This document shows, piece after piece, positions 27,558 through 64,000 of a stretch of 64,000 bases of DNA. Source of the stretch: Candidatus Bathyarchaeia archaeon (lineage in GTDB: Archaea; Thermoproteota; Bathyarchaeia; Bathyarchaeales; Bathycorpusculaceae); assembly GCA_049512935.1 (NCBI GenBank), contig JBEKWR010000002.1, forward strand, positions 32,001-96,000. The letters are read 5' to 3'. Below the pieces are notes generated by a model. It worked only from the letters and a program-made list of their open reading frames with translations, did not search any database and had not been told where the DNA came from. The first letter of the stretch is position 1; each line of letters opens with the position of its first letter. The position numbers and the translations under genes were made by a program.

Positions 27558-28628
27558 ATGAAGTTGAAGATAATGAACAACGGAACGGTTCTGATCTTAG
27601 ATACGATAGCATCTCACTTAGGGGAGTCGCTGTCAATTAGCCAATTAACTGAAAAGATCAAGGAAAAGCATGGAACCGCCTACTATTCAAATACTTACAA
27701 AAAGCTCAAGGAACTACAAAAAGAAAAAATATTACTTATCGAAAGCCACGGTAATAGCTCGATCATAAAGCCAAATTTCGAAAACTCCTTAACTGTTGAC
27801 CGCTTAGTGGAAATGGAAATTGAAAAGAAAATTGGCTTTTTTAAAACAAGGAATCACCTATCAACTGTCATAGAGGATTTGAAGGATACTGTTAGCGACA
27901 GATATTTTGTCAGGTCCATTTGTTCCATTGACCCCTTAAGGAATCTTCAACTGAACAGGTTTGAATTACTTTTTATGCTTCTGTCGCCCGCTGACGCCGA
28001 ACGTGAGACAATTCAATTGTATAAGGATACGCTGCGCTTGCAGAATAAATACAATTTGAGAATTGACAGCCTAATTTTGACTGAAAATGATTTTTCATCA
28101 CTCATACGATCAAATGAGATAAACCCTCTCAGAGAAGCAATAGCTAACGAAACAGCCATCTTATACCCTGAAGCGTTTTGGGGCAAGATAAGGGAGATTT
28201 CTCAAGAGAGCACCATCAAAGTTATACAAAAAGAAACTAAACCGAGCAAGATTTCAGAGTCTGACTTGGTGGGCAATCTGTACAGGTTTGGTTACAAGGA
28301 ATTTGGGTCAACGATAGCTGAATCAAGTAAATATTGTGTCGAATACATCGTGACGGCTTTGCTCCTGTCTGGCGACGCGAGAAGGATAGATGCAATCCCA
28401 ATAGTCTTGTCAAAAAACAGCTTCAAAGAGAACATGTTAGCCTTCTTGAGCCAAAAATACAGGACTGCCGGAAAACTTTTGGGGCTACTAACGATACTGC
28501 AGAAAGTCTCGCCAAATGAACAAGTTGAGAGGGCGATTTCAATTTTGCGAACATTTGGTGAAAAAGAAATACCGGGCAATGAAAATAGCATAATCCGTAA
28601 CATGGAGTTGTACGATGCCATCAGATAA
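27558..28628 (+). CDS. wHTH plus nucleotidyltransferase-like protein (putative type IV TA-like antitoxin partner)
   Basis: N-terminal wHTH; C-terminal ARRIDAIPIVL segment; overlaps the DUF6036-like gene; AT-rich and directly after tRNA-Trp. Confidence 0.6.
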   Translation: MKLKIMNNGTVLILDTIASHLGESLSISQLTEKIKEKHGTAYYSNTYKKLKELQKEKILLIESHGNSSIIKPNFENSLTVDRLVEMEIEKKIGFFKTRNHLSTVIEDLKDTVSDRYFVRSICSIDPLRNLQLNRFELLFMLLSPADAERETIQLYKDTLRLQNKYNLRIDSLILTENDFSSLIRSNEINPLREAIANETAILYPEAFWGKIREISQESTIKVIQKETKPSKISESDLVGNLYRFGYKEFGSTIAESSKYCVEYIVTALLLSGDARRIDAIPIVLSKNSFKENMLAFLSQKYRTAGKLLGLLTILQKVSPNEQVERAISILRTFGEKEIPGNENSIIRNMELYDAIR

Positions 28629-29151
28629 GAAACTGGACAAAAACGAATTATTCAGTCTGCTGAAGGTTTTTGATGAAGAGGCATCTAAGAATATTTGTCT
28701 AGTTGCGGTAGGTGGCACGGCAATGACACTTTTAGATCTCAAGCTTTCCACTAAGGATATAGATTTCACCGTTCCAAGCGCCGATAAACCCGAGTTTGAC
28801 AGAGTTAGAAATGCAGTGCCACACGGCTACAAGATAGATGTTTGGACAGATGGAACAATTTTTTGCATTACTCTGCCAGATGATTACATAGACCGCAGCA
28901 TCGACATAATAAGTTACAAGAAAATTCATCTGAAGGCACTGCACCCCCTTGACATAGTCGTCAGCAAAATAGCGAGGCTTGATAGCCATGACATCGAAGA
29001 CATCGGTGTGTACATCAAAAATACAATATCAGCAAAGAAGATATACAAAAAAGAGCAGCAACAGCGATCTATGTTTCTAAACGGGAAGACTATGAATACC
29101 AAGTTAAATGGGTTCTGGAAAACCTTTTCTCATGCTGAATCAAGCGTTTAA
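28615..29151 (+). CDS. DUF6036-like nucleotidyltransferase (AbiEii-like), probably frameshifted near the C-terminus
   Basis: VAVGGTAMTLLDLKLSTKDIDF, DIVVSKIARL and DIEDI. A5 run at 29017-29021; the alternative frame ends at 29138. Confidence 0.75.
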   Translation: MPSDKKLDKNELFSLLKVFDEEASKNICLVAVGGTAMTLLDLKLSTKDIDFTVPSADKPEFDRVRNAVPHGYKIDVWTDGTIFCITLPDDYIDRSIDIISYKKIHLKALHPLDIVVSKIARLDSHDIEDIGVYIKNTISAKKIYKKEQQQRSMFLNGKTMNTKLNGFWKTFSHAESSV

Positions 29152-51527: not shown

Positions 51528-52367
51528 TTAGCTATCTGGGACAACGCAGAACTTGTGTGGTTTATGGTCTTTGTCTACTAGAATTCGCTTCTCTTTCTCC
51601 AGTCGTTTGAGCTCAGCTCTGACAAAACTCTGAGGTTGCCTGATTTTTTCAGCGATACCTTGGACTGTGTTGTTTCCGCTTGCTATCTCTTTTAGCAAAG
51701 TTTCTCTGCTGAGTTTTTCAAGCTTTTCTTCTGCAACCCTTCGAATTTCCTTTTCTATGGGCGAGTATATGTGGTATCTTTGGTTGAGATCTTGAAGGTT
51801 TTGGGAGAGAGCCATTTCCCAAGGCACACCAGCTGCGGCTGACTGCGCTTGACATTCTCTGCTGATGAGTTTCCAGTCAAGCCCGGATTCTGCAAGGATT
51901 CGCATATCATCTAGGTCTGCCTCTCGTTCGGTTATTCCTTTGAATAGGAAGATATCCTCTTTTGATGTAATGAGAACTGTCAAGTGGCTGCCTTTGTAAA
52001 GCGGCTTTGCTCTTTGCTTGATCGCTTCTGACAGCGTTAGCGCATTGCAGACTTTGTTGACGAATAAGTCCCAGCGGAAGCCGTCTGTGTTTTCCATTAT
52101 TGCATTAGTTTGCATTTTACAATAGCTCTTTGTGATGAGAGCCTGAGCGGGCTTGTCGTAACCTGATTTACTTAGCGCAGTGAGCAAACTGTTAAGCTGT
52201 TCTGCGTTTGTTAGGATGATGTCGATGTCTTTGGTTGCTTCTTTGAGTCCATAGAATGCCATGGCGCCTCCTCCAATGAGGTAAAGTGTTGCAGGTTGTG
52301 TCTTGGTGTCGAGTTTGTCGAATTCTTGTTGGAGGTAGTTTTTGTTAAAGGAGCGCCTTTGCGTCAT
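51528..52367 (-). CDS. DUF6036-like nucleotidyltransferase (AbiEii-like) with C-terminal wHTH
   Basis: YLIGGGAMAFYGLKEATKDIDI and EDIFLFKGITEREADLDD. Confidence 0.8.
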   Translation of the reverse strand: MTQRRSFNKNYLQQEFDKLDTKTQPATLYLIGGGAMAFYGLKEATKDIDIILTNAEQLNSLLTALSKSGYDKPAQALITKSYCKMQTNAIMENTDGFRWDLFVNKVCNALTLSEAIKQRAKPLYKGSHLTVLITSKEDIFLFKGITEREADLDDMRILAESGLDWKLISRECQAQSAAAGVPWEMALSQNLQDLNQRYHIYSPIEKEIRRVAEEKLEKLSRETLLKEIASGNNTVQGIAEKIRQPQSFVRAELKRLEKEKRILVDKDHKPHKFCVVPDS

Positions 52368-53302
52368 GCGACCACCCTATAGTCTGTTGCTTTTTCGACG
52401 AACTCGTTCCAGGTTGGCAGCATTGAGTCGGCTTGACGTTTGTGAGTTTTTAAGAATTGTTGCATGGAATCGATTTGACTTCTAATGCCGAGTCGCTGGG
52501 CTTCACTTAGCAGATATGCCGTGTCCAAGTTGTTCCCGATTTTCTTGAGCAGAAGAAGAGCATAAGTTGTGTACCTCGTGCTGTCTGGCTCTATTAACAA
52601 AGTGTGCAGTATAGCGTCTTCTGGCCGGATTTCCTTCTTGTTTTTTGAATAGAGGTAGATTTCGGATTCCGAGAAAAGAGGCAGGTCGTATTCCTGAAAT
52701 ATGGAAGTTGCAGTTTTGAGGAAGCCTTTCGGAGGTCGCTGCACTGTCTTGGGTGCGCGCATCAAAAACTCTCCGTCTTTTTGCCAAAGGATGACTGCGT
52801 CTTTTGAGGCGGTGGCTGCTATTTTTCTCAGAAAGAAATCTTGATATTCCATAAGGAATTCGGATAGAGTTTGAAAGCGGGAATTAATGGAGCCGCTTTG
52901 AGTGATTATTCCGCGGGTTTTCAAGTTTTTAAGGTGACGCCAAAGAGTGTTTTTGGGAATAGTAACTGCGTGATTTTCAGGTCCGTTCAGAGTTTGAAGC
53001 AGGATGTCTATTGCTTTGCCGCTTAGAACATTTTCCCAGTCAATGTGGCTATGGACTGATAAGAGATCGTTAAGCAATATTGCATGTTTTGAATCACTGA
53101 AGTAAGTTTGCTTTTTGAATGCATGCTGGGTTGTTTTAATAAGACCTTTTTGTTCAAGCTTCTTTAGGTTGTAGGAGAGAAGTTGTGGTGTCATTGAAAG
53201 AGCTTTCTCTATGGAAAATAGTTCGTGATTTCCTTTTGCTATCCCTTTTAGTATGGATAGCTCAGCTTTACTGAAGGTGTATTCGGAGCTTGCAGTTTTC
53301 AT
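52364..53302 (-). CDS. Double wHTH protein (AbiEi-like partner)
   Basis: Two wHTH-like segments; EDAILHTL, YALLLL and LPTWNEF; ATGA overlap with the nucleotidyltransferase. Confidence 0.7.
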   Translation of the reverse strand: MKTASSEYTFSKAELSILKGIAKGNHELFSIEKALSMTPQLLSYNLKKLEQKGLIKTTQHAFKKQTYFSDSKHAILLNDLLSVHSHIDWENVLSGKAIDILLQTLNGPENHAVTIPKNTLWRHLKNLKTRGIITQSGSINSRFQTLSEFLMEYQDFFLRKIAATASKDAVILWQKDGEFLMRAPKTVQRPPKGFLKTATSIFQEYDLPLFSESEIYLYSKNKKEIRPEDAILHTLLIEPDSTRYTTYALLLLKKIGNNLDTAYLLSEAQRLGIRSQIDSMQQFLKTHKRQADSMLPTWNEFVEKATDYRVVA

Positions 53303-53495: not shown

Positions 53496-55604
53496 TCAGC
53501 TCGAGGGTTTCACACTCGGAGAGAAATTCAGCTTGTAGTCCGCCAGATTCCCTGCAAACATTTCTCTTAGTTCTCCGTCATCTTTAAGCCATTCTCCAGC
53601 GCCAAGCAGTACCCGGGTCATTTCCGTTCTTTCCCTTATCACTTTCAGTATTCGTTCTTCATAAGTGCCCTTCAAATCAAATAGATAGATTTCGACGGGT
53701 TCCTTCTCCCGAAAAGCTAGTGAGTTGATCCTATCGACTCGACCCACCCTTTGCTCCATGGCAGATGGACTCCATTCAAGGTCATAGTGCATGATTCTAC
53801 GGCAGGAAAGGTGAAGATCGATGCTCTCCCTTCCCTTTTGGCTGCAGATTAAGACGTAAGGAGGCCCCGGAAGGTTGAATGCAAACTGAGTGTGTTCAAT
53901 GGGTTTGTCTTCTTCCGATTGGTCGCCAGTTATTGTTGCCACATAATCGATGTGCTGACTAGGACCCCATGTTTCACTCCAGTATTTGATTTGAGGTTCT
54001 CTTCCAATTAGCTCCTTGTTTAGCTGATTTAGGACCTCGTCGATTCGAGAAGCGTCAAGATCTTTGAAGTAGTATGAAGCGAATCTGGCTCTATCAATAT
54101 TTCCAGAAAATTCTCGTCTATGCAGTGCCGCTCTAACTTTCACCCATTTCTTTGCGCCATCTTTCTGTTCCCTTTGGAACCTGTCTTTCAGGCGTTTTCT
54201 CAACTCACGTATAGTAGCGTTTCTCTCACAGAATACGACAATTTTCTGGAACGAGGTTGGGTTGCTCCTTACGATTCGTTCGATTTCCGATACAGCGAAC
54301 TCCAACTTTGGGGACTCGTTTCCTGCTGCCTTTGGAGGAAGGAATGCAACTACATCATTAAACTGCCCGCTCTTCTCGTTTGAATGCCGGATAGCACTAT
54401 ATGACGAGCACAGCGTCTCTCGATTGCTTGCTATATGCGGCCTCGCACCCCCTGAGAGCATTTCCATGAATTTGCTTTCCAAGGCGAAAGTGGCGAATGC
54501 ATGACTTGGCGAAGCCATCAAGTCCTGAGGAACATCTAAAATGTTTAATCTTCGCCTTTCCTTGCCATTCGGCCACTTATCTGGCCAGGTATTTCGAACG
54601 AGATATCTGCGAAGTTTGGTCTCTACCTGAGTCTTTAGGTCTGTCGAAGGTGGATCTCTCGTCCTTACAGCCGACCGGAATTCATTCAAGGTTTCCTTAA
54701 GTCTCGCAACTTCTGTTCCTTCGTTAATGATCGTCGCGGTATACAAGTCCTTGATTCGTTCGATAAGCTCATCGATGTCCAGTGAGAATGGGGTTGCAGT
54801 AACCAGCAGAGCTCTGTGTGCTTTCGAAGATAACACTTCTTGGAGAAAAGCGTGATTCTGTTCTCCGCCGAGTCTATGGGCTTCATCGAGAATCAATAAG
54901 TCTGCAGCTGTACCGGCAGGTCTTCGAGTTGAAAGAACCAGCCGTTGCAGATTTCGATATGCTCCGTAAACACTGACCCACTTGCCAGAATTACGATCAT
55001 AGTTATCAAACCAGAAACGATTCATCTGCTTTCTTGATACAGTTCTTGGGTTTTCAACACCTGTCCCTACGGGAACGTCAACGAGCCTCTGAGCTCTAAA
55101 TAGCTCTTTCAGAAGACGGCTTCGATTCTTGCCTCGCGGTGCATTCTTAGCATGGGCGAGTTTTTCAAACATATCTCTAACCTCATTGCCAGTTGTGTTT
55201 TTCATCGATTCATATGAGACAAAAGAGATCCCGGATTTTATTCGATCCAACCTATCGACTTCTTTCCCTTTTGGGAGGAACGAGTTTTCAACCTGTTTAG
55301 ACCTCAACAAATCCCAACGCTTCCTCCAGATTTGTGTCATATTGTTGTTGGAAGTGAGAACTAGAACCTTTGTTTCTGGGCCTTTCCTTTTGAAAACCGA
55401 AGCGGCAACTGCGAGAGAGACATAGGTCTTTCCCATTCCGACTTCATCAGCTAGTATCGCGCCAGGAACAGCATTCGGCCCATAAAGCCGTTCTAAAATT
55501 GCAGCGGCCGTAATTTTCTGTCGGGCAATGTCAGGAGCTTCGACCAATTCATCCAGATTTAGGTTGAGCCAATTCAAATCATGCACTGAAAGAGATTGGC
55601 TCAT
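53496..55604 (-). CDS. SF2 (SNF2-like) helicase/ATPase of a three-gene defence-like operon
   Basis: ILADEVGMGKT, LILDEAH, TATP, ESIDLH and EQRVGRVDR. Confidence 0.9.
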   Translation of the reverse strand: MSQSLSVHDLNWLNLNLDELVEAPDIARQKITAAAILERLYGPNAVPGAILADEVGMGKTYVSLAVAASVFKRKGPETKVLVLTSNNNMTQIWRKRWDLLRSKQVENSFLPKGKEVDRLDRIKSGISFVSYESMKNTTGNEVRDMFEKLAHAKNAPRGKNRSRLLKELFRAQRLVDVPVGTGVENPRTVSRKQMNRFWFDNYDRNSGKWVSVYGAYRNLQRLVLSTRRPAGTAADLLILDEAHRLGGEQNHAFLQEVLSSKAHRALLVTATPFSLDIDELIERIKDLYTATIINEGTEVARLKETLNEFRSAVRTRDPPSTDLKTQVETKLRRYLVRNTWPDKWPNGKERRRLNILDVPQDLMASPSHAFATFALESKFMEMLSGGARPHIASNRETLCSSYSAIRHSNEKSGQFNDVVAFLPPKAAGNESPKLEFAVSEIERIVRSNPTSFQKIVVFCERNATIRELRKRLKDRFQREQKDGAKKWVKVRAALHRREFSGNIDRARFASYYFKDLDASRIDEVLNQLNKELIGREPQIKYWSETWGPSQHIDYVATITGDQSEEDKPIEHTQFAFNLPGPPYVLICSQKGRESIDLHLSCRRIMHYDLEWSPSAMEQRVGRVDRINSLAFREKEPVEIYLFDLKGTYEERILKVIRERTEMTRVLLGAGEWLKDDGELREMFAGNLADYKLNFSPSVKPSS

Positions 55605-57364
55605 GGCAATTGCTTCCTTAGGACAGGACTAATATCCTTCTTGATTGGTTTCACAATTCTTATCATTGCTCTCCAAGCTTTCTTACGTTTGTCTCGAGAA
55701 AGAATGAACTTAGCTATTTCGAACTTCGACCATTCGCGCCAATAAATTTCTGTTGGACTCAGACCGGCAACGTCGGAAGCGGAACTTATGCAGCCCTTTA
55801 GAATAGCTTGAACATAGTTGAGCTCAAGTTCTGAGTCTGCATCTTCAATCATAGCCGCGAGATTCGTCAGAGCCTCTCGTAGCGCTACCATACGTTCATG
55901 CCAAGGGAAAGTGGAGTCGCTCGTTGAAGATTTGAAAAGGTCAGTTGTTTGGGCCCTTGACAGTTCACTATCCGTGTTTTCGAAATCTCTTTTTCCAGAT
56001 AGGAGGGCAAGATATTGGTCGAAGGACCATTTTTTTTCCAATGTCGAGTCATCGCATACATCAAATGGACATTCTATGGGAACCCAATCTGCTTCAAAAC
56101 CAATCTCGACGATCGGATTTCTGGGCAATGTCGCCACTGCCCTTTCTGACCCGAATTTTGGGTCCGACAGATTGATTCCCTGGGCAGGATTGACTTCAGT
56201 CCCCGCAAGTGAAACGACAGTGTCTTCGATATTGTGTGGTACAATCCATTTAGGAATTAGTCTCTGAGCTGAAGGCTCGTATCGTATAGACTCTAAAGAT
56301 ATCCAGCGCTTAATTCGTGGTTTTGCTTGTGGTTTGATAAAATTACACTCTTTGAAGCTTACTTCTTTTGCCTTGGGCAAGAAATCCATCGGAAGCGACG
56401 GAGATGTATATTTCAATTGCCAAGCCAGTTCAACGTTGCCAGACTGAGTCCACTTTCGTAACATGGCGGCAGTCGTCGCATTCGGAGACCCTCCCAGCAT
56501 TTGCCAGGTACCCTCTGTGTATACAGCCTGCAGTTTAGCGTGGAGTGGTCTGGAATTCTCTCCGCCTACACGAAAAACTTTGATATGCACCCTATCTTTT
56601 AGGCCAGCGAAAGTAGACCAGCTACCAAAAACTCGACCATCCGGTGCTCCCTGCAGATAGATGTTAAGAGAGGCGGTCTTTGAGTAGGAGTGCTCGACTA
56701 GATGCGAAAAGTAGCCCTCGTCCTCCTGGTTCGCTTCGTCCTCAGCCTGATCGGTAAAGGGTGCGATAACATGAGCACGCGTCCAAGATCCACTCCAATT
56801 CCATTGCTCCCAAATCGAAGCGGTTTCTGAACTTGCAATAATTTGATCATTAATGCGAGGCGGAACATTCCCGAAGTGTTTCTTCGAATACCAAGCTCCA
56901 AATTTTGTGCTTGATCCGATACTTCCAAGTGGAAATGCCCAGCGTTCTATCGCATCCGGAAGCACCCAACCATCCCATTCGAAATATGAGAAGACCTCAA
57001 GATTCTTCTCCCAGCCACTAGGCGTCAAGTTTCCACTCCCGATGAACAATGCAGTCTTGTAGAGCTTTGAATCCTTGTTACGAAGCATTAGTGCAATTAC
57101 TTTGGGATGCCATAGGTTAGTCCCTGGATATTTGCAAACATCGTAACCTGCACCCTGACCATGGAAGTTATCTCCATCAACTATGACAGTAACTAGAAAA
57201 TGTCCCTTCAATTGGCCATGACCGCAAAGAATTCCATCAAGAACTTCGGTTTCAAAAAATGACCTGCGAAAAGTATATGTACAAAACAGTGCAGCTTGGA
57301 TTCTGCAATCCCCTATGGCTTGCACTATTTCGCTCCCCAGATTACTATAGCGGATTTTACTCAC
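55601..57364 (-). CDS. Phospholipase D-family nuclease-like protein with two HxK motifs
   Basis: CTYTF, WHPKV...GSGNLT and LHAKL...GSPNAT. Confidence 0.82.
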   Translation of the reverse strand: MSKIRYSNLGSEIVQAIGDCRIQAALFCTYTFRRSFFETEVLDGILCGHGQLKGHFLVTVIVDGDNFHGQGAGYDVCKYPGTNLWHPKVIALMLRNKDSKLYKTALFIGSGNLTPSGWEKNLEVFSYFEWDGWVLPDAIERWAFPLGSIGSSTKFGAWYSKKHFGNVPPRINDQIIASSETASIWEQWNWSGSWTRAHVIAPFTDQAEDEANQEDEGYFSHLVEHSYSKTASLNIYLQGAPDGRVFGSWSTFAGLKDRVHIKVFRVGGENSRPLHAKLQAVYTEGTWQMLGGSPNATTAAMLRKWTQSGNVELAWQLKYTSPSLPMDFLPKAKEVSFKECNFIKPQAKPRIKRWISLESIRYEPSAQRLIPKWIVPHNIEDTVVSLAGTEVNPAQGINLSDPKFGSERAVATLPRNPIVEIGFEADWVPIECPFDVCDDSTLEKKWSFDQYLALLSGKRDFENTDSELSRAQTTDLFKSSTSDSTFPWHERMVALREALTNLAAMIEDADSELELNYVQAILKGCISSASDVAGLSPTEIYWREWSKFEIAKFILSRDKRKKAWRAMIRIVKPIKKDISPVLRKQLP

Positions 57365-58440
57365 AGCAAATCATTCCGCTTCATCATCCTGACAGCATTC
57401 GACCATCGGCAGTCACCGAGGGTGCTTTCGGAACGGCTTCCGTTATACTGATGTGTATACAGCTTACCGTCTGAAAAGCTTAACCATAGATCCGACTCTC
57501 CCCTTCGCCTTGCTCTAAACTCTGTTTCATGCCAATCGCAAAGCTCCCGAAGAGTCGGAGGTCGGGAAGCAAAGGCTCGTACTGAATCCCAACGAGTTCC
57601 CATTAAATCTTTAGGTGGCAACATCTTGAGTACGGGCCATGAGTCAATGGAAGATTTTCCATCGAATACGACAGAATTGAATACCTTGCGTACTTCATGA
57701 GACCATCTGCAGAATTCATGGGCAAATGACGATATTGGGCCGTAGCTTCCAAGCAGAGGAGCAGCATCATTCCACGCCTCTTTCTCGGACCAATTCAACC
57801 TCTCCATCGCACAGTATAGCTCCGGCATCTTAAGCTTGAGTCTCTCATGAAACTTTCGCCGGAAGCTCGCAAGATTCGCAGAGCACACCTGCTCGAAAGA
57901 TACTCGCCACTGACTCCAGTCTCCATTCGAGAGCCTAGGCGGCTTGTTTGCCCCCTCAGTCCAAACTAAGGCAGAATCTGTTAACATAATTCTCTCTCGC
58001 TCGACAATATCTAGACTTCTGAAAGGTTGCAAGTGTACGCCCAACAAACCCTGCGAACGTTGGTTATGCAGTACTGGGCGGTAAGGTTTTTTTTGAGGGG
58101 CATCTTCCTCGTCTGATTGTCTACGTGACAGTTCGATTCCATCAAAGCTTTTTTCGTCGTGCATTTTTGGGAACTTAGCCCATGTAAGCTTGAGGCATCT
58201 CTCCCACGAGAGAAAATTTCTTACAGCGTCTGGATCATTCTTAAAAGGAATCGTAGACCATCTTAGTAGAATTAGTGTCCAGAAAGCGTCTTTGACAGAA
58301 ATTGTCCTTCCAGTAAGGCAGGGAACAAGTCTATTACTGAGTTCTTCCCTCATTGCGTCGAGTCCTAGCGGATCTGGCGGATTGTTGTTTCGCTCGGGGG
58401 TCGTCCAGAATAAATTAGCCAATCGAACACTAGCGGTCAT
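57361..58440 (-). CDS. DPLGL-motif protein (DUF6361-like N-terminus), first gene of the defence-like operon
   Basis: W..P....DPLGL..R..LS..LVP.LT..T pattern; 4-nt overlap with the PLD gene. Confidence 0.62.
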   Translation of the reverse strand: MTASVRLANLFWTTPERNNNPPDPLGLDAMREELSNRLVPCLTGRTISVKDAFWTLILLRWSTIPFKNDPDAVRNFLSWERCLKLTWAKFPKMHDEKSFDGIELSRRQSDEEDAPQKKPYRPVLHNQRSQGLLGVHLQPFRSLDIVERERIMLTDSALVWTEGANKPPRLSNGDWSQWRVSFEQVCSANLASFRRKFHERLKLKMPELYCAMERLNWSEKEAWNDAAPLLGSYGPISSFAHEFCRWSHEVRKVFNSVVFDGKSSIDSWPVLKMLPPKDLMGTRWDSVRAFASRPPTLRELCDWHETEFRARRRGESDLWLSFSDGKLYTHQYNGSRSESTLGDCRWSNAVRMMKRNDLL

Positions 58441-58494
58441 GACTTATTCTTAGCCCTTTTATCTGATTAAACTTGTTCTTCGCTTGCTTCAGCT

Positions 58495-58803
58495 TCAAGG
58501 GCTAGTATTTCTATTTTCGGTCTCTATTAACTTCGGTATGAATTCAATGAAGTCTTCTTTTTGTTGGTAGGCAAGCTTCTCATAGCCGTCTATTAGGTTG
58601 TTTATGAGCACTCGGTAGACTCTGGTGACTTCCTTGAGCTTAAACTCAATTATCTCATGCGTGAAAGTGGCGAAGGCGTCTGTTTCTGTTTGGTCGTAGA
58701 TGTAGATGGTGCCTTGCTTTATTTCGCCATGAATAGACTTGGCATTGTCTGGTATCCAAGCGACAGAGAGCGGAATACCCAACCTATCCAAAATTCCTTG
58801 CAT
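58495..58803 (-). CDS. Small hypothetical protein with zincin-like HExxE motif
   Basis: HGEI..GTIYIYD..AFATFTHEIIE. Confidence 0.6.
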   Translation of the reverse strand: MQGILDRLGIPLSVAWIPDNAKSIHGEIKQGTIYIYDQTETDAFATFTHEIIEFKLKEVTRVYRVLINNLIDGYEKLAYQQKEDFIEFIPKLIETENRNTSP

Positions 58804-59237
58804 CCGCTTGATGACATTTTCTTTTGCCGCGCTATTATCAAATTATCTTTCTTTATTTTCCATGTGGAAATTCTGTTATCAGGGTTTTGAACTCTTTGCA
58901 TGAGCGTAATTTTCGTTGAGAAAATATCTTTTAACAAAAAATTATTTTTTGTTAATTTTGTTATGATCGCTATTTAGCTGTTTTTCGCAAAAAGTTAGAA
59001 AAATCTAAACTTTTCACAATTTAATATGACCATGTTGAGCTTAAAATTGTAAAAACGGCTCAAATTGCGTTCATCAATGGTAAAAGCATTCTAACTTTTC
59101 ATGGAGCATTTAGTGTTAAACTAGGCTTAACTCATGCGATAAACAGGCTATTACACTGTTATTGCTTGCCACTTCAAGCCTTCAATTGCTTTAGCGCTTA
59201 TATCGGCGCAGACTGCGAGTTTCACAGTTACTCTGCA

Positions 59238-60026
59238 CTAAAGCTCTATTATGTCATAATCATTTGGGATTATGGTTTCACCCGAAAACCGGCTTGATGC
59301 TTCATCGAGTATTTCCTTTTCGGTTCCGTAAAGCAGATGGACAAGAACAAGTCTTTTGGCGCCTGATTTCTGCGCTAAATCAGCAGCCTCTCTAGCGGTA
59401 GAATGCTTTGTCAGCTCAGCAAGGCCATGCATTTTCTCGGTGCAAAAAGCTTCATGGATAAGAACATCAACGTCCTCGACCAAATCGCTCAAACCTTCAA
59501 AAGGTCGAGTATCCGGAACATATGCAATTGAAAACGAGGGATTTGCCATGTCAATTCGGTATCCGTATGCTGGAACCACATGCTGAAGAGGGATCGGTCG
59601 CAAAAGGGCATCTTTGTTTAATTGAATAACCGGTTGCTTTGCGATATCCTGATTGGTTATCTTGGTCATCTTCTCTAATTCGCTCAACTGGTAAGGAAAA
59701 AGGGTCTTGGTAATTTGCAATGTTTGGCTGTATACGACGCTATCAGCAAGTACATTGATTATCGAAGGAATTGGCTTTTGAGACACTATAGCTGTCCAAA
59801 ATGCATGGTAATACAAAGGTACCCCGAAGGTGTGGTCTCCATGAAGATGACTCAGGAATAGATAGTCGATTTTTTCAATCTCGTAGCCGAGCTTTGTCAG
59901 CCTAAGTGTAACGCTCCCACAGCACTCAGTTAGCAAACGTAATTTATCTGAAAAATCAATCAAGAAATTGGTGCTTTCTCTATGCAAAGGGAAGGTGTTG
60001 GTCCCAATAATTGCAATTTTGGGCAA
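59238..60026 (-). CDS. Metallo-beta-lactamase hydrolase, RNase Z-like
   Basis: SHLHGDH, H..PAYGYR, PDT, LIHEA, HST and LVLVH; GAGGT SD. Confidence 0.88.
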   Translation of the reverse strand: MPKIAIIGTNTFPLHRESTNFLIDFSDKLRLLTECCGSVTLRLTKLGYEIEKIDYLFLSHLHGDHTFGVPLYYHAFWTAIVSQKPIPSIINVLADSVVYSQTLQITKTLFPYQLSELEKMTKITNQDIAKQPVIQLNKDALLRPIPLQHVVPAYGYRIDMANPSFSIAYVPDTRPFEGLSDLVEDVDVLIHEAFCTEKMHGLAELTKHSTAREAADLAQKSGAKRLVLVHLLYGTEKEILDEASSRFSGETIIPNDYDIIEL

Positions 60027-60146
60027 TCTATAACCTCATTTGAGGTTAGAGCTCCTTATATTAAAGGTATTCTCAGGAGTCAAATATGCACTTGAGTTGT
60101 TTTAATCTTTCACACCGCAGAAAACCTAACAGTTTCATCCTTGAAT

Positions 60147-61352
60147 TTACTTCTTCTTTCGATGGCAGATTTCTTTGACGGTTTTCTCGGGCAGATTATC
60201 GCCAAACGAATCCTTCGGGACGTACTTGATTTTGAAGTATCTCAGAGATTCTTGATAGTGTTCTCTCTCAATCACTCTAATCAAGCGTTCGTATGTCACC
60301 TTTCTGCAGATTTCGTTCTCCGAGTTGTTTACGAGAACGAACTTTCGGTCTCCTCCATCCTCTTTATTCAGGTCCATGACTGCATGTCCAGTAGTTCCCG
60401 AGCCGGCAAAGAAATCCAAAACTAACGCATGCTTCCCCCCTGCTACCCGAACAAGCTCCTTCACGAGCTTCATAGGCTTCGGAGTCCGAAACATGTCTCT
60501 TCTCCCCAGAATCTCCTCGAGCTCGTCCTTGGCGGATGATGTTGTCCCCAGTCCCTTCAGTATCGTTTCCATGTGGGTCGGAGTCTCTGCATACTCTTCA
60601 CCGCTCCTAGGTGAAGGCATCATCATCGAGCTGAAGTTCGTCTTGTTTTTGTCCTTGAAACAAGCAAAGATGTTCTCATGCACGGTTTTGATGTTGTGAA
60701 AGGGCCTTTCCACACGATTCTGATCAAACTTGGGATCAGTCTTGGGCCAAACTAGAACTACCACGTTGGCTTCGCCAAAAATAGTTTGACATAAGAGGAG
60801 CAGAGTGCCTGTTTCATGTTCGTCAATATGAATGAACATTACACCATTTTCTGACAAAAGGCCATATGCAGCACGGATTCTCTTGTCCATGAAGCTGAGC
60901 CACTTACTATGAACGTATGCGTCGCCAGCGTCTGCATAGTCATAATCATCGTAGTTCAAGGATTCCATCCCTGTATTATATGGGGGGTCGATGTAGATTA
61001 CGTCTACTTTCCCAGCGTAAGACTTTGATAGATGTCTGAGGGCCGCGAGATTCTCCCCTTCTATCAAGAGGTTTGATCTCTTGCCATTGTTGATCGCCAG
61101 TTTCCTCATTTCCGCCAGCTTGATGTCGTTCTTATCCAATAGTTTCTCTATTCCCTCTAAATGCTCTTCGAAGGTAAGGCCGTACCCAGTCTCGACTAAT
61201 GCCCGTCTCACGTCGTCCAGATAACGCAGTAGAGTAGGATTTCCCGAGGCCTTCTCGACGAACCGCCTCACAGCAGATATATGTCTCAGAAGTTCGTCGT
61301 TTCGCCTTCTCGAGACATTTGCGTTACCAGGCGCATGCTTCTTTTTACTCAT
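60147..61352 (-). CDS. Type III Mod-like beta-class DNA methyltransferase with short TRD
   Basis: NLLIEGENL, IYIDPPYNTG, HSKWLSFM, TPKP and LDFFAGSGTTGHAV. Confidence 0.9.
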   Translation of the reverse strand: MSKKKHAPGNANVSRRRNDELLRHISAVRRFVEKASGNPTLLRYLDDVRRALVETGYGLTFEEHLEGIEKLLDKNDIKLAEMRKLAINNGKRSNLLIEGENLAALRHLSKSYAGKVDVIYIDPPYNTGMESLNYDDYDYADAGDAYVHSKWLSFMDKRIRAAYGLLSENGVMFIHIDEHETGTLLLLCQTIFGEANVVVLVWPKTDPKFDQNRVERPFHNIKTVHENIFACFKDKNKTNFSSMMMPSPRSGEEYAETPTHMETILKGLGTTSSAKDELEEILGRRDMFRTPKPMKLVKELVRVAGGKHALVLDFFAGSGTTGHAVMDLNKEDGGDRKFVLVNNSENEICRKVTYERLIRVIEREHYQESLRYFKIKYVPKDSFGDNLPEKTVKEICHRKKK

Positions 61353-61360
61353 AGTGTCAC

Positions 61361-63133
61361 CTACGATCTAGTCAGCCTTGTGTGTGACCTCGAAAACGCA
61401 TGATCTGCGATTGAAACGTTCTTTGGCACTTCCAGGACTGCTAAATTAGGGCAGTTATAAAATGCCCAATCTTCGATTTGAATAACACTTCTAGGGATTT
61501 TGGCTTTCTCTAGTCGTACGCAATTGGCGAAGGCTCCTTTTCCTATGAGCGCGACTCTATCAGGGAGGGTGGCGGACCTAAGATTGCCACACCCGAAGAA
61601 TGCGTTCCGTCCTATTGTTCTAACGGTGCCAGGTATCACGAATTCCTCTTCAGGGTTACGCATTGAGTAGTAAACTAGCTTGGTCTTGGATCTGTTATAC
61701 AACACTCCGTTTTCATAGACAAAGTTAGGACTATTGTTGGTTAGTGACAGGGATGGACAGTTGGCAAAGGGGTTGTAGCCGATGACCTCAAGGGTGCTGG
61801 GAAGGGTCACGTTCGACAGGTTAACACAGCCAAAGAATGAATGCCTCTGAATGGTAGTGACCCCCTCTGGAATGGCGAAGGATTTGGAAGAACTGTTAAT
61901 TGCAAAATAGAAGATTGACGTCCTATTTTTATCGTACAACGCGTCGTTCTCGAAAACGAAGTAAGGGCTGTTGTTCACCAAACTCAAAGATGGGCAACTT
62001 GAGAATGGGTTATTCTCCACTATCGCTACACTGGGTGGAATTGTTATCTTCCGAAGGGCAGAACAACCATGGATTGCATGCTTACCTATGCTGATAATAC
62101 TATCAGGAATCTCAAAGACGCTAGCGGTGTTACTCATCGAGTAGTATATCAACCGGGTTTTCGTCCGGTCGTATAGCGCCCCATCCTCTAGAATGAAGTC
62201 CGGGCTCTCATTCTTTAGGATTAAAGCCGGGCAATTGCTGAATGGATTGTCCCCTATTACTGAAATATGCCGTGGAATAGTTAGGTTGACTAAATTGGTG
62301 CAATCGGAGAAGGTCTCACCGCCTAGGTTTGTAACGGTGTCTGGTATTGTTACCTTCATAATTTCAGGGCGGTCCCAGAAAACTCCATTTCTCAGTTTCT
62401 TCACGCCTTTCGAAATTGCTACTAGTTTCCCGTTACCGAGATATCTAATCAACTCACCGTTTTCAATCTCAAATTCGGAAGAACCAGAGGTTGCTTTAGC
62501 TCGTGTTGTTTTGTCCTGCTGGTTTGTTTTTTCCACAATAATGGGGTGGTAGGCTTCTATCTCTTCCTCGAATAATCCTGTAGTGCTTGAAACTGCTCTG
62601 CCTTTCAGAGCGTGGTCGGGTTTTGCGCAATTGCCTGCTGTGAGGGGGAACATTGTGTATCCGTAATCGATCAATCCGGACCTTAGTGTTGATGCATATA
62701 CACATAGGAATTGGAACTGCTTGTTTTCACTTGCTGGCAGGACAGGCCGGCTCTGGAGTACCTTAACGGCCTCGACTTCTTTGTCATATTCCTTGTCGTC
62801 CCATCGTCTACACCTTATTGCAATCAGCCAGTCGTCGGGTTCAGCCTTGATCGCAATATCACACTCATTGGTAAATCCCATATACAGGCTGCTAGGGCGA
62901 TAACCCTTTAACAATAGCCTGTCAGCACATTCGACGATGACGTAGTTTCTTTGGGTGAACCTTGCGAATGCGATATCACCCAGTCGTATCTTATCCCCGT
63001 AATCAATGAGTTCTTTAGCTAGGTCCACCTTGATTGTGTATTGGCCAGGATACCTCTTTTGATATACATTCTGAGAGACTTCGCGGTATCCGAGCTTCCA
63101 GAAGTAGTTTAGGGGATTCAGGATGTCTGTCAT
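61361..63133 (-). CDS. Fusion of an RM-type endonuclease-like N-terminal domain and BspA-type (LRR_5) repeats
   Basis: N-terminus VDLAKELIDY..NYVIVECADRLLLKGY..CDIAI..IRCR..FLCVYAS; C-terminal repeats IPxxVxxIGxxAFxxCxxL and FxxExGxLYxxxKTxL. Confidence 0.78.
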   Translation of the reverse strand: MTDILNPLNYFWKLGYREVSQNVYQKRYPGQYTIKVDLAKELIDYGDKIRLGDIAFARFTQRNYVIVECADRLLLKGYRPSSLYMGFTNECDIAIKAEPDDWLIAIRCRRWDDKEYDKEVEAVKVLQSRPVLPASENKQFQFLCVYASTLRSGLIDYGYTMFPLTAGNCAKPDHALKGRAVSSTTGLFEEEIEAYHPIIVEKTNQQDKTTRAKATSGSSEFEIENGELIRYLGNGKLVAISKGVKKLRNGVFWDRPEIMKVTIPDTVTNLGGETFSDCTNLVNLTIPRHISVIGDNPFSNCPALILKNESPDFILEDGALYDRTKTRLIYYSMSNTASVFEIPDSIISIGKHAIHGCSALRKITIPPSVAIVENNPFSSCPSLSLVNNSPYFVFENDALYDKNRTSIFYFAINSSSKSFAIPEGVTTIQRHSFFGCVNLSNVTLPSTLEVIGYNPFANCPSLSLTNNSPNFVYENGVLYNRSKTKLVYYSMRNPEEEFVIPGTVRTIGRNAFFGCGNLRSATLPDRVALIGKGAFANCVRLEKAKIPRSVIQIEDWAFYNCPNLAVLEVPKNVSIADHAFSRSHTRLTRS

Positions 63134-63134
63134 G

Positions 63135-63737
63135 TTATGGAGACCTGCTTTGGCTATCTGATTTCAGGATCGGACGCAAGGTTTCCATCATGACTTCCAA
63201 AACTCCCTTCGCACTGAGGCTTGTAGTATCTATTGACTTGTACTTCATCGAGTACCTGATTAGGAAGCCTTCCATCTTCTCCTTGGACTCCTTGTAAAGT
63301 GCTACCTTTCGGAGGTCAGGGTCGCCCGGGTCTCTCTTTCGAAGCCTCTTCATACCTGCGTCTTCGCTGGCCCAGAGGAGGAAGGTGTAGTCTGGCTTGC
63401 CAATTAAGCCGATCAAGCATTGATAGATGGGTTCGGTCTTCTCCCCTCCGCACCAGAAGTAGTTTGACAGCAGATGTCTGTCAGTAATGATGTTCTCTCC
63501 GGCGAACTTGTGGTACAAGTATACGTTTCCAAGTCCGTAGAACCATGCTCTTAGGGCATCATCGTCTACCTGCTGATTGATGTAGTCTCTAATCCTGATG
63601 TAGTTTGTAAAACCTCCGTCAGGATCAAAGACGTAGTGCAGGGGCTTCTCGACGAATTTGAAGTTCAATTTCTCTGCCAGTTTCTTGGCTGCGGTGGTTT
63701 TCCCGACGCCGTCCATTCCCTCTATTGCTATGTGCAT
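63135..63737 (-). CDS. Thymidylate/deoxynucleoside-monophosphate kinase-like P-loop protein
   Basis: IAIEGMDGVGKTT, IITDR, KPD and RLRKRD lid; GGAGG SD before ATG 63737. Confidence 0.85.
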   Translation of the reverse strand: MHIAIEGMDGVGKTTAAKKLAEKLNFKFVEKPLHYVFDPDGGFTNYIRIRDYINQQVDDDALRAWFYGLGNVYLYHKFAGENIITDRHLLSNYFWCGGEKTEPIYQCLIGLIGKPDYTFLLWASEDAGMKRLRKRDPGDPDLRKVALYKESKEKMEGFLIRYSMKYKSIDTTSLSAKGVLEVMMETLRPILKSDSQSRSP

Positions 63738-63747
63738 CAAATTCCTC

Positions 63748-64000
63748 CTACCAATCAAGGTGCGAAGTTGGATTAGGCCTTCTATGCGCGACCTCCGCTT
63801 TCTTGCCCGCGGTGAAGAAGCTAAGGTCTTCCAGATAGCCTGAAACTCGTCTCACCCGATATATGTCATTGCTGCCGCAACTCGGGCAATTGTCGAAGGT
63901 CCCAGTGAGGTTACATTTCAAGCATGTATCTAATGGAAAATTGATTCCGAGGTAGCTGACCCCGTAACTTATGGCAGCCTCGATGGTCTCAATAACCGCC
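63748..64000 (-). CDS. nrdD: Anaerobic (class III) ribonucleoside-triphosphate reductase, C-terminal part (not in ORF track)
   Basis: Manual translation YLGINFPLDTCLKC..CPSCGSNDIYRVRRVSGYL..FTAGKKAEVAHR shows the Zn site and the glycyl-radical loop. Confidence 0.9.
   Translation of the reverse strand, partial: AVIETIEAAISYGVSYLGINFPLDTCLKCNLTGTFDNCPSCGSNDIYRVRRVSGYLEDLSFFTAGKKAEVAHRRPNPTSHLDW

Follow-up and report, generated by a model that had tools for sequence, protein, structure and literature searches.

Why should genes for a class III ribonucleotide reductase (RNR), a nucleotide kinase, a leucine-rich repeat (LRR) protein and a DNA methyltransferase (MTase) follow one another almost without a gap on an archaeal chromosome? 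The question is raised by the end of a 64,000-nucleotide stretch of a Candidatus Bathyarchaeia archaeon (GenBank assembly GCA_049512935.1, contig JBEKWR010000002.1, positions 32,001 to 96,000), hereafter the window, in which five co-oriented open frames occupy the minus strand from 59238 to 64000. An earlier reading made from the letters alone (the sequence-only reading) had described four co-oriented genes with gaps of 10, 1 and 8 nt, followed after 120 nt by a metallo-beta-lactamase (MBL) fold gene. All of these values proved exact when read again off the sequence: 10 nt lie between nrdD and the kinase gene, 1 nt between the kinase and LRR genes, 8 nt between the LRR and MTase genes and 120 nt between the MTase and MBL genes. 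The stop codon of nrdD is overlapped by a GGAGG. We find that positions 60147-64000 are the distal four-fifths of a five-gene operon, hereafter the cassette, made up of nrdG, nrdD, a thymidylate kinase (TMK)-like kinase gene, the LRR gene and a Mod-like MTase gene (Table 1).

Gene order is conserved in archaea, bacteria and a phage

Related loci were sought with an alignment of the N-terminal domain of the LRR protein (N-domain) against one genome per prokaryotic species. This gave 112 pattern matches, eight of which were confirmed and correspond to eight genome loci (L001 to L008): two from Nitrososphaerota, one from Methanocellaceae, two from Methanosarcinaceae, and one each from Planctomycetota, Myxococcota and Poribacteria. 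Searches with the window proteins (tblastn) placed nrdD, the kinase, the LRR gene and the MTase gene in the same order and on one strand in all eight. A ninth locus (L009) was found in the gut phage PV036423.1 (NatCom_17901, Ca. Heliusvirales, 57 kb), which carries all five cassette genes in one row. Among 50,697 phage records this was the only tblastn match for the kinase (50% identity) and for the N-domain (28%); two short unannotated phage fragments match the MTase only, and the kinase had no match in 72,556 plasmid records. The phage LRR protein (536 aa) consists of an N-domain and LRR_5 repeats, the phage N6_N4 methylase has 292 aa, and the phage kinase is annotated as "thymidylate kinase". 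Heliusvirales are described as temperate phages, mostly of Firmicutes, and the available part of their description mentions a common DNA methyltransferase and an invertase and makes no mention there of RNR (PMC11283538).

Pfam annotation of 118 open reading frames (ORFs) from the genome loci, together with an all-against-all comparison, recovered the order nrdG-nrdD-kinase-LRR-MTase in nine of the nine other loci. Since the same order recurs in every one of them, the arrangement goes beyond chance, and the possibility that the gene set is not conserved together anywhere, allowed for by the sequence-only reading, falls away. That reading had also predicted nrdG beyond position 64000, and the prediction is borne out by the relatives: a radical-SAM (S-adenosylmethionine) activase gene of ~150 aa lies directly upstream of nrdD in all nine, so nrdG is expected just past the end of the window. 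The flanks differ from locus to locus and include a threonyl-tRNA synthetase, ABC transporters, IS91 and IS66 transposases, an RHS protein and Cas5/6. Also, 12 clusters of LRR proteins and 12 clusters of kinases share a longest contig of identical size, which is a hint, not proof, that they lie on the same contigs.

Beyond the five cassette genes, the only gene common between loci belongs to the AP_endonuc_2 family (Endo IV / xylose-isomerase-like TIM barrel). It stands between the LRR and MTase genes in three of ten cassettes (L001, L002, L005), in either orientation, and the L005 copy is 40-43% identical to those of L001 and L002. This gene may be an optional sixth member of the cassette.

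Table 1. Positions of the cassette genes, their domains and other features (window coordinates unless a locus is named)
Feature	Position	Strand	Basis or remark
nrdD 3' end (class III ribonucleotide reductase)	63748-63999	minus	Pfam NRDD; last 83 codons, cut by window end
Kinase, thymidylate-kinase family, 200 aa	63135-63737	minus	Pfam Thymidylate_kin (PF02223)
590-aa LRR protein	61361-63133	minus	Pfam LRR_5 and PADLOC Type IIG match
N-domain of 590-aa protein (residues 1-165)	62639-63133	minus	Type IIB/IIG nuclease fold, degenerate ExK
BspA-type LRR solenoid of 590-aa protein (residues ~220-590)	61361-62476	minus	Pfam LRR_5
Beta-class Mod-like DNA methyltransferase, 401 aa	60147-61352	minus	Pfam N6_N4_Mtase, PADLOC MTase_III
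MBL-fold protein resembling RNase Z, 262 aa	59238-60026	minus	NCBIfam
AP_endonuc_2 copy	L001 11806-12831	minus	Pfam
AP_endonuc_2 copy	L002 13391-14179	minus	Pfam
AP_endonuc_2 copy	L005 9165-9935	plus	Pfam
IS66-family transposase in LRR gene	L002 11230-12642		
Two intact large serine recombinases	L009 12018-14868	opposite to cassette	after MTase gene
Degraded serine integrase fragments	L006 6723-7876		just after MTase gene
tRNA	L003 6655-6729		Rfam; 480 nt upstream of nrdG
102-aa ORF	58495-58803		
Azaca-like trio	53496-58440	minus	PADLOC ZacB/ZacC matches
SNF2-type helicase of the trio, 702 aa	53496-55604	minus	ZacC, also PDC-M27C
Winged-helix / HVO_2833_C regulator	52364-53302		
DUF6036 gene, first copy	51528-52367		overlaps the regulator
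DUF6036 gene, second copy	28615-29151		overlaps a 356-aa gene (region 27558-29151)

The five genes diverge and travel as a block

The pairwise identity matrices of the five proteins, computed over the nine loci and the window, correlate with one another at r 0.79-0.90. Most of the single-gene trees, not all, contain the clades {window, L001, L002} and {L007, L008} and, more loosely, {L004, L005, L006}; the phage stands on a long branch and the kinase tree is not resolved. At most cassette junctions the start and stop codons overlap or lie 1-41 nt apart, and both order and tight spacing hold at identities down to 34-51% (LRR protein and NrdD, phage against the rest). All five genes are open in nine of ten cassettes, the exception being the LRR gene of L002, which an IS66-family transposase splits into pieces of 418 and 129 aa. 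The Planctomycetota contig groups with Methanosarcinaceae, and the bacterial NrdDs are 55-65% identical to the archaeal ones, which argues that descent was not vertical. Collectively, these comparisons suggest that the five-gene operon passes as a unit, by inheritance and by transfer, through archaea, bacteria and at least one temperate phage. The proposal of a horizontally moved module thus gains support from the co-divergence of the five proteins and from the spread of the block over two archaeal phyla, three bacterial phyla and a temperate phage. The protein lineages themselves are private to the cassette.

Traces of mobility adjoin some copies. The phage cassette borders an integration module with two intact large serine recombinases, encoded on the other strand after the MTase gene, and degraded serine integrase fragments follow the MTase gene of L006. 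A tRNA precedes nrdG in L003; it was the only Rfam match across the nine loci, and no riboswitch was found in them.

These data bear on one alternative, namely that there is no joint function at all: nrdG-nrdD-tmk would be the housekeeping anaerobic dNTP operon of the host, to which an orphan methylase and an LRR gene have remained joined through shared descent and joint transfer. NrdDG followed by TMK makes a logical metabolic pair, RNR genes are known to move horizontally, the composition of the cassette is that of the chromosome, the surroundings in the window are housekeeping chromosome (PheRS, S7, Pst), and the archaeal copies group roughly by taxon. However, the order and spacing are retained at 34-51% identity in two domains of life and a phage with every flank different, the genes stay open in nine of ten cassettes, and the LRR and MTase genes co-diverge with NrdD to the degree given above. 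We regard an arrangement lacking any joint function as quite unlikely.

An anaerobic ribonucleotide reductase and a divergent kinase

The 83-aa NrdD fragment in the window matches the Pfam family NRDD (3e-17) at profile positions 491-560 of 562, and TIGR02487 at 1.1e-18 (67 bits against a cut-off of 326, for C-terminal residues only). It contains the Zn-ribbon cysteines CLKC...CPSC and the glycyl-radical motif RRVSGYLE, the glycine of which (codon 63838-63840) is the radical carrier in NrdD enzymes. Compared with the C-termini of the full-length NrdDs (565-580 aa), the fragment shows 64-85% identity in the eight genome loci and 53% in the phage. In all nine other loci the protein matches NRDD over profile positions 1-560 of 562 and the motifs IMGCRT and RRVSG(Y/F)LE are invariant, and the L003 orthologue clears the TIGR02487 cut-off (345 vs 326). 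The M-G-C loop points to a probable formate-type enzyme. At ~570 aa the cassette NrdD is short: of the 746 positions of the model NF005497 it covers just the C-terminal 435, and the missing N-terminal region is presumably the regulatory ATP-cone. Meanwhile, NrdG retains the radical-SAM cysteines CxxxCxxC (GC...C..C) in nine of nine loci, and its best NCBIfam match is NrdG (3.5e-30, below the cut-off). When the L003 NrdD was compared with the 50,697 phage records, 2296 matched; PV036423.1 was 51% identical and the next matches listed were ~29% identical.

The kinase belongs to the thymidylate kinase family (PF02223, 4.3e-16, 59.6 bits vs a cut-off of 27) and falls below the level expected of a dTMP kinase equivalog (TIGR00041, 48.4 bits vs a cut-off of 83.25). 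Its best matches in the PDB are thymidylate kinases, with an E-value of only 1.2e-5. The P-loop GMDGVGKT lies at ~63696-63719, and the motifs MDGVGKTT and TDR(H/Y) are invariant in ten of ten sequences (the window and nine loci). The protein also matches two full-length PADLOC profiles, PDC-M51B (4.5e-12) and VakA (2.1e-9). From the wording of a neighbouring model we take VakA to mean "viperin-associated kinase"; literature searches found no text on VakA or PDC-M51. Kinase relatives at E<=1e-10 number 1303; those listed, 120 in all, show identities of 55% or more, and source names among them include Thor-, Heimdall-, Loki- and Promethearchaeota and Thermoplasmataceae.

A restriction nuclease fold without its catalytic ExK motif

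A full-length AlphaFold2 (AF2) model of the 590-aa LRR protein (pLDDT 88, pTM 0.84) consists of the N-domain, two disordered linkers and an LRR solenoid, and its top fold matches are the BspA-type LRR structures 4gt6, 4h09 and 4cp6. The C-terminal 370 residues match LRR_5 (PF13306, 1.1e-57, 193.8 bits) in four stretches, and by sequence the LRR part matches the PDB entries 4gt6, 4fs7 and 4h09.

The N-domain leads to a different family. Residues 13-161 match the N-terminus of the PADLOC model REase_MTase_IIG (2.7e-13), and an exhaustive search of representative proteins found 179 relatives, most of which, besides the LRR family itself, are the N-termini of proteins of 1050-1330 aa. All five long relatives that were sampled carry the Pfam domains HSDR_N_2, N6_Mtase/Eco57I and Methylase_S, that is, they are Type IIB/IIG restriction-modification (R-M) fusions. 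A separate AF2 model of the N-domain (pLDDT 84) has an alpha-beta-beta-beta-alpha-beta core, and Foldseek gives a single significant PDB match for it, to the RM subunit of BsaXI (E 5e-5, probability 1.0).

The active site is where the two families part. All 40 Type IIG relatives in the alignment have E...D...(E/D)xK followed by GGQLFSY. The window protein retains E68 and D92 but has R107-C108-R109 at the ExK site (codons 62807-62815), and none of the nine other loci has kept the motif either. Across 53 members of the LRR family, the helix Glu is kept in every one and the beta-strand Asp in 48, but position 107 holds R, K, Y, D, Q, F, A, N or I, with D in seven members and E in none. The Lys position of ExK is occupied by fifteen different residues, and DCK occurs in only three of the 53. 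Cleavage by BsaXI is lost in each of the mutants E73A, D90A, E105A and K107A (PMC11997821). Because the ExK, required in BsaXI, has been replaced by variable residues, we read the N-domain as inactive; it is predicted to be a structural relic of a restriction nuclease, catalytically dead and not an enzyme. The label "nuclease", under which the gene first entered this analysis, therefore has to be given up for the activity and describes only a Type IIB/IIG fold.

The same combination of domains occurs well beyond the ten cassettes. A word-indexed protein search with the N-terminal 215 residues found only eight relatives, all with the N-domain and LRR_5 architecture. A profile of diverse N-domains found 754 longer proteins, and 48 of the 120 listed have the LRR architecture; these include entries under the names Thorarchaeota, Thermoplasmataceae, Bacilli and Bacteroidales. 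Considering its nuclease-like N-terminus and its place in an operon of cytoplasmic enzymes, the LRR protein is presumably cytoplasmic. Its predicted complex with the MTase (991 residues) scored 0.00, a value that weighs neither for nor against binding.

A shorter subfamily of LRR proteins (~549-554 aa; P0046, P0299, P0362 and others) resembles the phage version and has entries named Bacilli and Bacteroidales, which points to many further cassettes on the prophages of gut bacteria.

A Mod-like methylase with little target recognition domain

The last gene encodes a DNA methylase that matches Pfam N6_N4_Mtase (3e-31) and, as its best PADLOC hit, MTase_III (4.8e-77). Its PDB matches are Mbo45V (7dsu, 7e-43), a Mod protein (1.8e-34) and the EcoP15I Mod (4zcf, 1.8e-31). 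The motif IV DPPY (~60978-60989) and the motif I FAGSGTT (~60390-60410) are both present, DPPY being typical of adenine-N6 methylases. In the alignment with Mbo45V, residues 63-209 pair with 72-226 and residues 261-362 with 378-479, leaving a target recognition domain (TRD) region of ~51 residues vs ~151 in Mbo45V. This agrees with the sequence-only reading, which had noted a Mod-like enzyme with a short TRD. DPPYNT, FAGSG, FD.NR and SAKDE are invariant in ten of ten sequences, and the last two lie inside the short TRD region. The insert that replaces the Mod TRD is thus short and family-specific.

The absence of a Res partner could likewise be upheld, as no Res-like gene adjoins the MTase in the window and none is common to the nine loci. 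The Res fragments of L003 belong to a separate neighbouring system. The helicase of the Azaca-like trio was considered as the missing Res and rejected: it matches ZacC/PDC-M27C and sits with a ZacB-like phospholipase D (PLD)-like protein.

The features of the reductase, kinase and methylase could also be explained by a non-canonical DNA precursor pathway, in which a dedicated NrdD and a divergent kinase handle an unusual nucleotide (e.g. uracil or a methylated base), leading to bulk-modified DNA of the element, and this DNA or its precursors are the substrates of the TRD-poor methylase and of the optional Endo IV-like enzyme. Such a pathway would suit five proteins that are cassette-specific lineages (NrdD being ~29% identical to the other phage NrdDs listed), a kinase that is under the dTMP kinase equivalog cut-off (48 vs 83) and matches solved TMKs only at 1e-5, a TRD down to a conserved insert of ~50 residues, and an Endo IV / xylose-isomerase-like gene between the LRR and MTase genes of three cassettes in ten. 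Phage hypermodification pathways use dedicated dNMP kinases, as in T4 and PBS phages. Yet NrdD keeps every canonical motif and, in L003, clears the NrdD equivalog threshold; PF01555 enzymes are known as DNA, not nucleotide, methylases; no hydroxymethylase, deaminase or transferase is conserved in the cassette; and the LRR protein would be left without a role. Of the explanations considered here, we find a precursor pathway the least probable.

Proposed function of the cassette

The catalytic motifs of NrdD, NrdG, the kinase and the MTase are all intact. The account we favour, tentatively and with a likelihood that stops short of being probable, is that of an accessory unit of mobile-element descent, which would help replication by combining dNTP supply under anoxia with adenine methylation that shields DNA from restriction, and in which the LRR protein serves as a non-catalytic adaptor. 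NrdG would activate NrdD, which would then reduce NTPs to dNTPs without oxygen. The kinase would turn a dNMP into the diphosphate. Its simplest candidate substrates are dTMP and dUMP, thymidylate being the step that NTP reduction leaves out. The methylase would place N6-methyladenine on DNA, a mark that would protect against restriction, and its specificity is probably low since so little TRD is left. The LRR protein would cut nothing; it might bind or scaffold one of the cassette enzymes, or a protein of the host or of an invader.

Several observations weigh against this proposal. If the module served only supply and protection, there would be no evident reason for every copy to retain a non-catalytic LRR protein, and in the same position; the role given here to that protein, as well as the substrate of the kinase, are guesses. 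Neither the N-domain nor the LRR domain has a basic charge bias of the kind that suggests DNA binding (median isoelectric points 5.7 and 7.8). At 0.46-0.47, the cassette has the mean GC content of the window, and a cassette that blends so well with the base composition around it is no fresh arrival. A search of 51 ORFs in the flanks of the genome loci for capsid, portal and terminase families (PHROGs) gave no matches; as these flanks hold no virion or packaging genes, the chromosomal copies are not visibly in proviruses, and the hosts seem to keep the cassette whole. Several loci come from metagenome-assembled genomes, and the phylum labels of the short contigs (L006, L008) may be binning errors. 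The kinase family, moreover, is large (1303 proteins). Lastly, defence genes lie within 10 kb in four of the nine cellular loci (the window and the eight genome loci), and such neighbours fit a defence role equally well.

These neighbours are the Azaca-like trio in the window, Type III Res pieces in L003, a BrxH/SngC-like helicase in L004 and Cas5/6 in L007; PADLOC, run on 62 flank ORFs, matched three. They lead to the idea of an R-M-derived cassette that defends against phages or plasmids, in which the methylase marks self, the LRR protein senses an invader protein or unmarked DNA, and RNR and the kinase form an effector or recovery arm that shifts the nucleotide pools. An MTase beside a restriction-derived domain does resemble an R-M layout, the kinase matches two defence-linked PADLOC kinase models (PDC-M51B and VakA), and the phage copy sits beside the integrase, where prophages often carry defence genes. 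Nevertheless, the other five of the nine cellular loci lack defence neighbours, and the cassette encodes neither an active nuclease nor a toxin, and no other effector could be recognised in it, ExK having disappeared from every copy. RNR raises dNTPs, which would help an invader rather than starve it, and no PADLOC system model matched NrdD or NrdG, save for a weak radical-SAM match of NrdG (6e-4). Defence is in our judgement an unlikely role.

A broader possibility is a new kind of nucleotide-centred conflict module, common to phages, archaea and bacteria. Its own RNR, without the N-terminal region of long NrdDs, and its divergent kinase would build a private, possibly non-canonical dNTP stream, the TRD-poor methylase would mark DNA broadly, and the dead-nuclease LRR protein would link the enzymes with one another or with a target of host or invader origin; one conceivable part for it is that of a decoy for Type I/IIB/IIG restriction complexes. 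We consider such a module rather improbable. If true, it would be the first dedicated RNR wired into a DNA-marking system and would contain the first cytoplasmic BspA-LRR adaptor with a defined set of partners.

Relation to known systems

Each component of the cassette belongs to a known family, and the fixed combination of five genes fits no described system. Searches of PADLOC v2 gave no full system gene set, only single-gene matches: PDC-M51B/VakA for the kinase, MTase_III/II for the MTase (the best 25 of 43 matches were seen, so a lower-ranked one is possible) and REase_MTase_IIG for the N-domain, with none for NrdD. In full-text literature searches we found no description of a five-gene cassette of this kind.

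The anaerobic RNR modules of phages, such as T4 NrdD/NrdG with a dNMP kinase, are a close parallel: they too unite, on a mobile genome, a glycyl-radical NrdD with its small radical-SAM activase and a nucleotide kinase. The cassette NrdD is, however, a separate lineage, ~29% identical to the T4-like phage NrdDs listed, and comes in a fixed association with an LRR protein and a Mod-like methylase, both absent from those modules. A second parallel is found in the Mod subunits of Type III R-M systems (EcoP15I, Mbo45V): the cassette MTase aligns with them on both sides of the TRD and shares the N-terminal helical extension, DPPY and FxGxG, but it has ~51 residues where the Mod TRD has ~151, and no Res helicase-nuclease adjoins it.

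The LRR protein has relatives in two groups. With the Type IIB/IIG R-M fusions (BsaXI RM), residues 1-165 share the sequence (E to 1e-15) and the predicted fold of the PD-(D/E)xK domain. The nuclease domain of those fusions is joined to a gamma-class methylase and specificity domains, whereas the cassette domain is joined to LRRs and lacks the ExK dyad, which corresponds to E105 and K107 of BsaXI (PMC11997821). With the BspA-type LRR_5 proteins (4gt6, 4h09, PcpA 4cp6) it has in common the repeat family and the solenoid; the solved relatives are cell-surface proteins according to their depositors, while the cassette protein starts with a nuclease-like domain. The fusion of a IIB/IIG nuclease domain, dead by prediction, to BspA LRRs is a new protein architecture. 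The kinases PDC-M51B and VakA, finally, resemble that of the cassette in that their partner, too, is a radical enzyme acting on nucleotides, but the partner in the cassette is RNR and not viperin, and no other cassette gene matches those systems.

If the proposed accessory unit is real, the cassette would exemplify nucleotide-pool enzymes hard-wired to DNA marking in a compact, experimentally tractable form, and would show a restriction-nuclease domain recycled as a non-catalytic module. Given that the cassette crosses the boundary between archaea, bacteria and phage, and that its families span from Asgard archaea to Bacteroidales, anaerobes and their viruses may carry it widely as an accessory trait that has escaped annotation. 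These findings have implications for annotation as well: nrdD and "thymidylate kinase" genes of the cassette type should not be taken for housekeeping genes by default, and the 590-aa protein should not be called a nuclease.

Neighbourhood in the window

Genes for PheRS, ribosomal protein S7, a Pst transporter and PhoU mark the window as ordinary archaeal chromosome. A scan of 58400-64000 with a sigma-70 promoter and terminator model, which is unsuited to an archaeon, gave nothing above shuffled controls. Long ORFs on the opposite strand of the cassette (e.g. 60259-60696, plus strand) look "conserved" between loci; they were rejected as genes and are shadow frames, since they overlap the real frames of the MTase, kinase and LRR genes in every locus.

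The MBL protein has RNase Z as its best NCBIfam match (5.4e-34, below the curated cut-off), and it also matches a model of cyclic-nucleotide-degrading phosphodiesterases (5e-17) and, weakly, the anti-Pycsar protein Apyc1 (0.008). The 120-nt spacer upstream of it contains a TAATATAA box and a 7-bp hairpin. Neither the MBL gene nor orf102 nor the Azaca-like genes have a counterpart in the nine other loci. The MBL gene, being absent from all nine, is best regarded as a neighbour in a separate transcription unit and was rejected as a cassette member.

Downstream of the MBL gene, positions 58804-59237 hold no long frames, and the GC content of the 2-kb bin is 0.41. The 102-aa ORF that follows has no match in Pfam, NCBIfam, PADLOC or PHROGs.

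The three-gene unit next to it looks like an Azaca-like defence system. Its helicase matches ZacC at 7.5e-31; it is accompanied by the PLD-like protein of 587 aa (ZacB, 1.9e-12) and by a 359-aa protein without a family match.

Further away, the window has two copies of a DUF6036 nucleotidyltransferase-like gene, one overlapping the winged-helix / HVO_2833_C regulator and the other a 356-aa gene without an assigned family. These gene pairs may be toxin-antitoxin-like.

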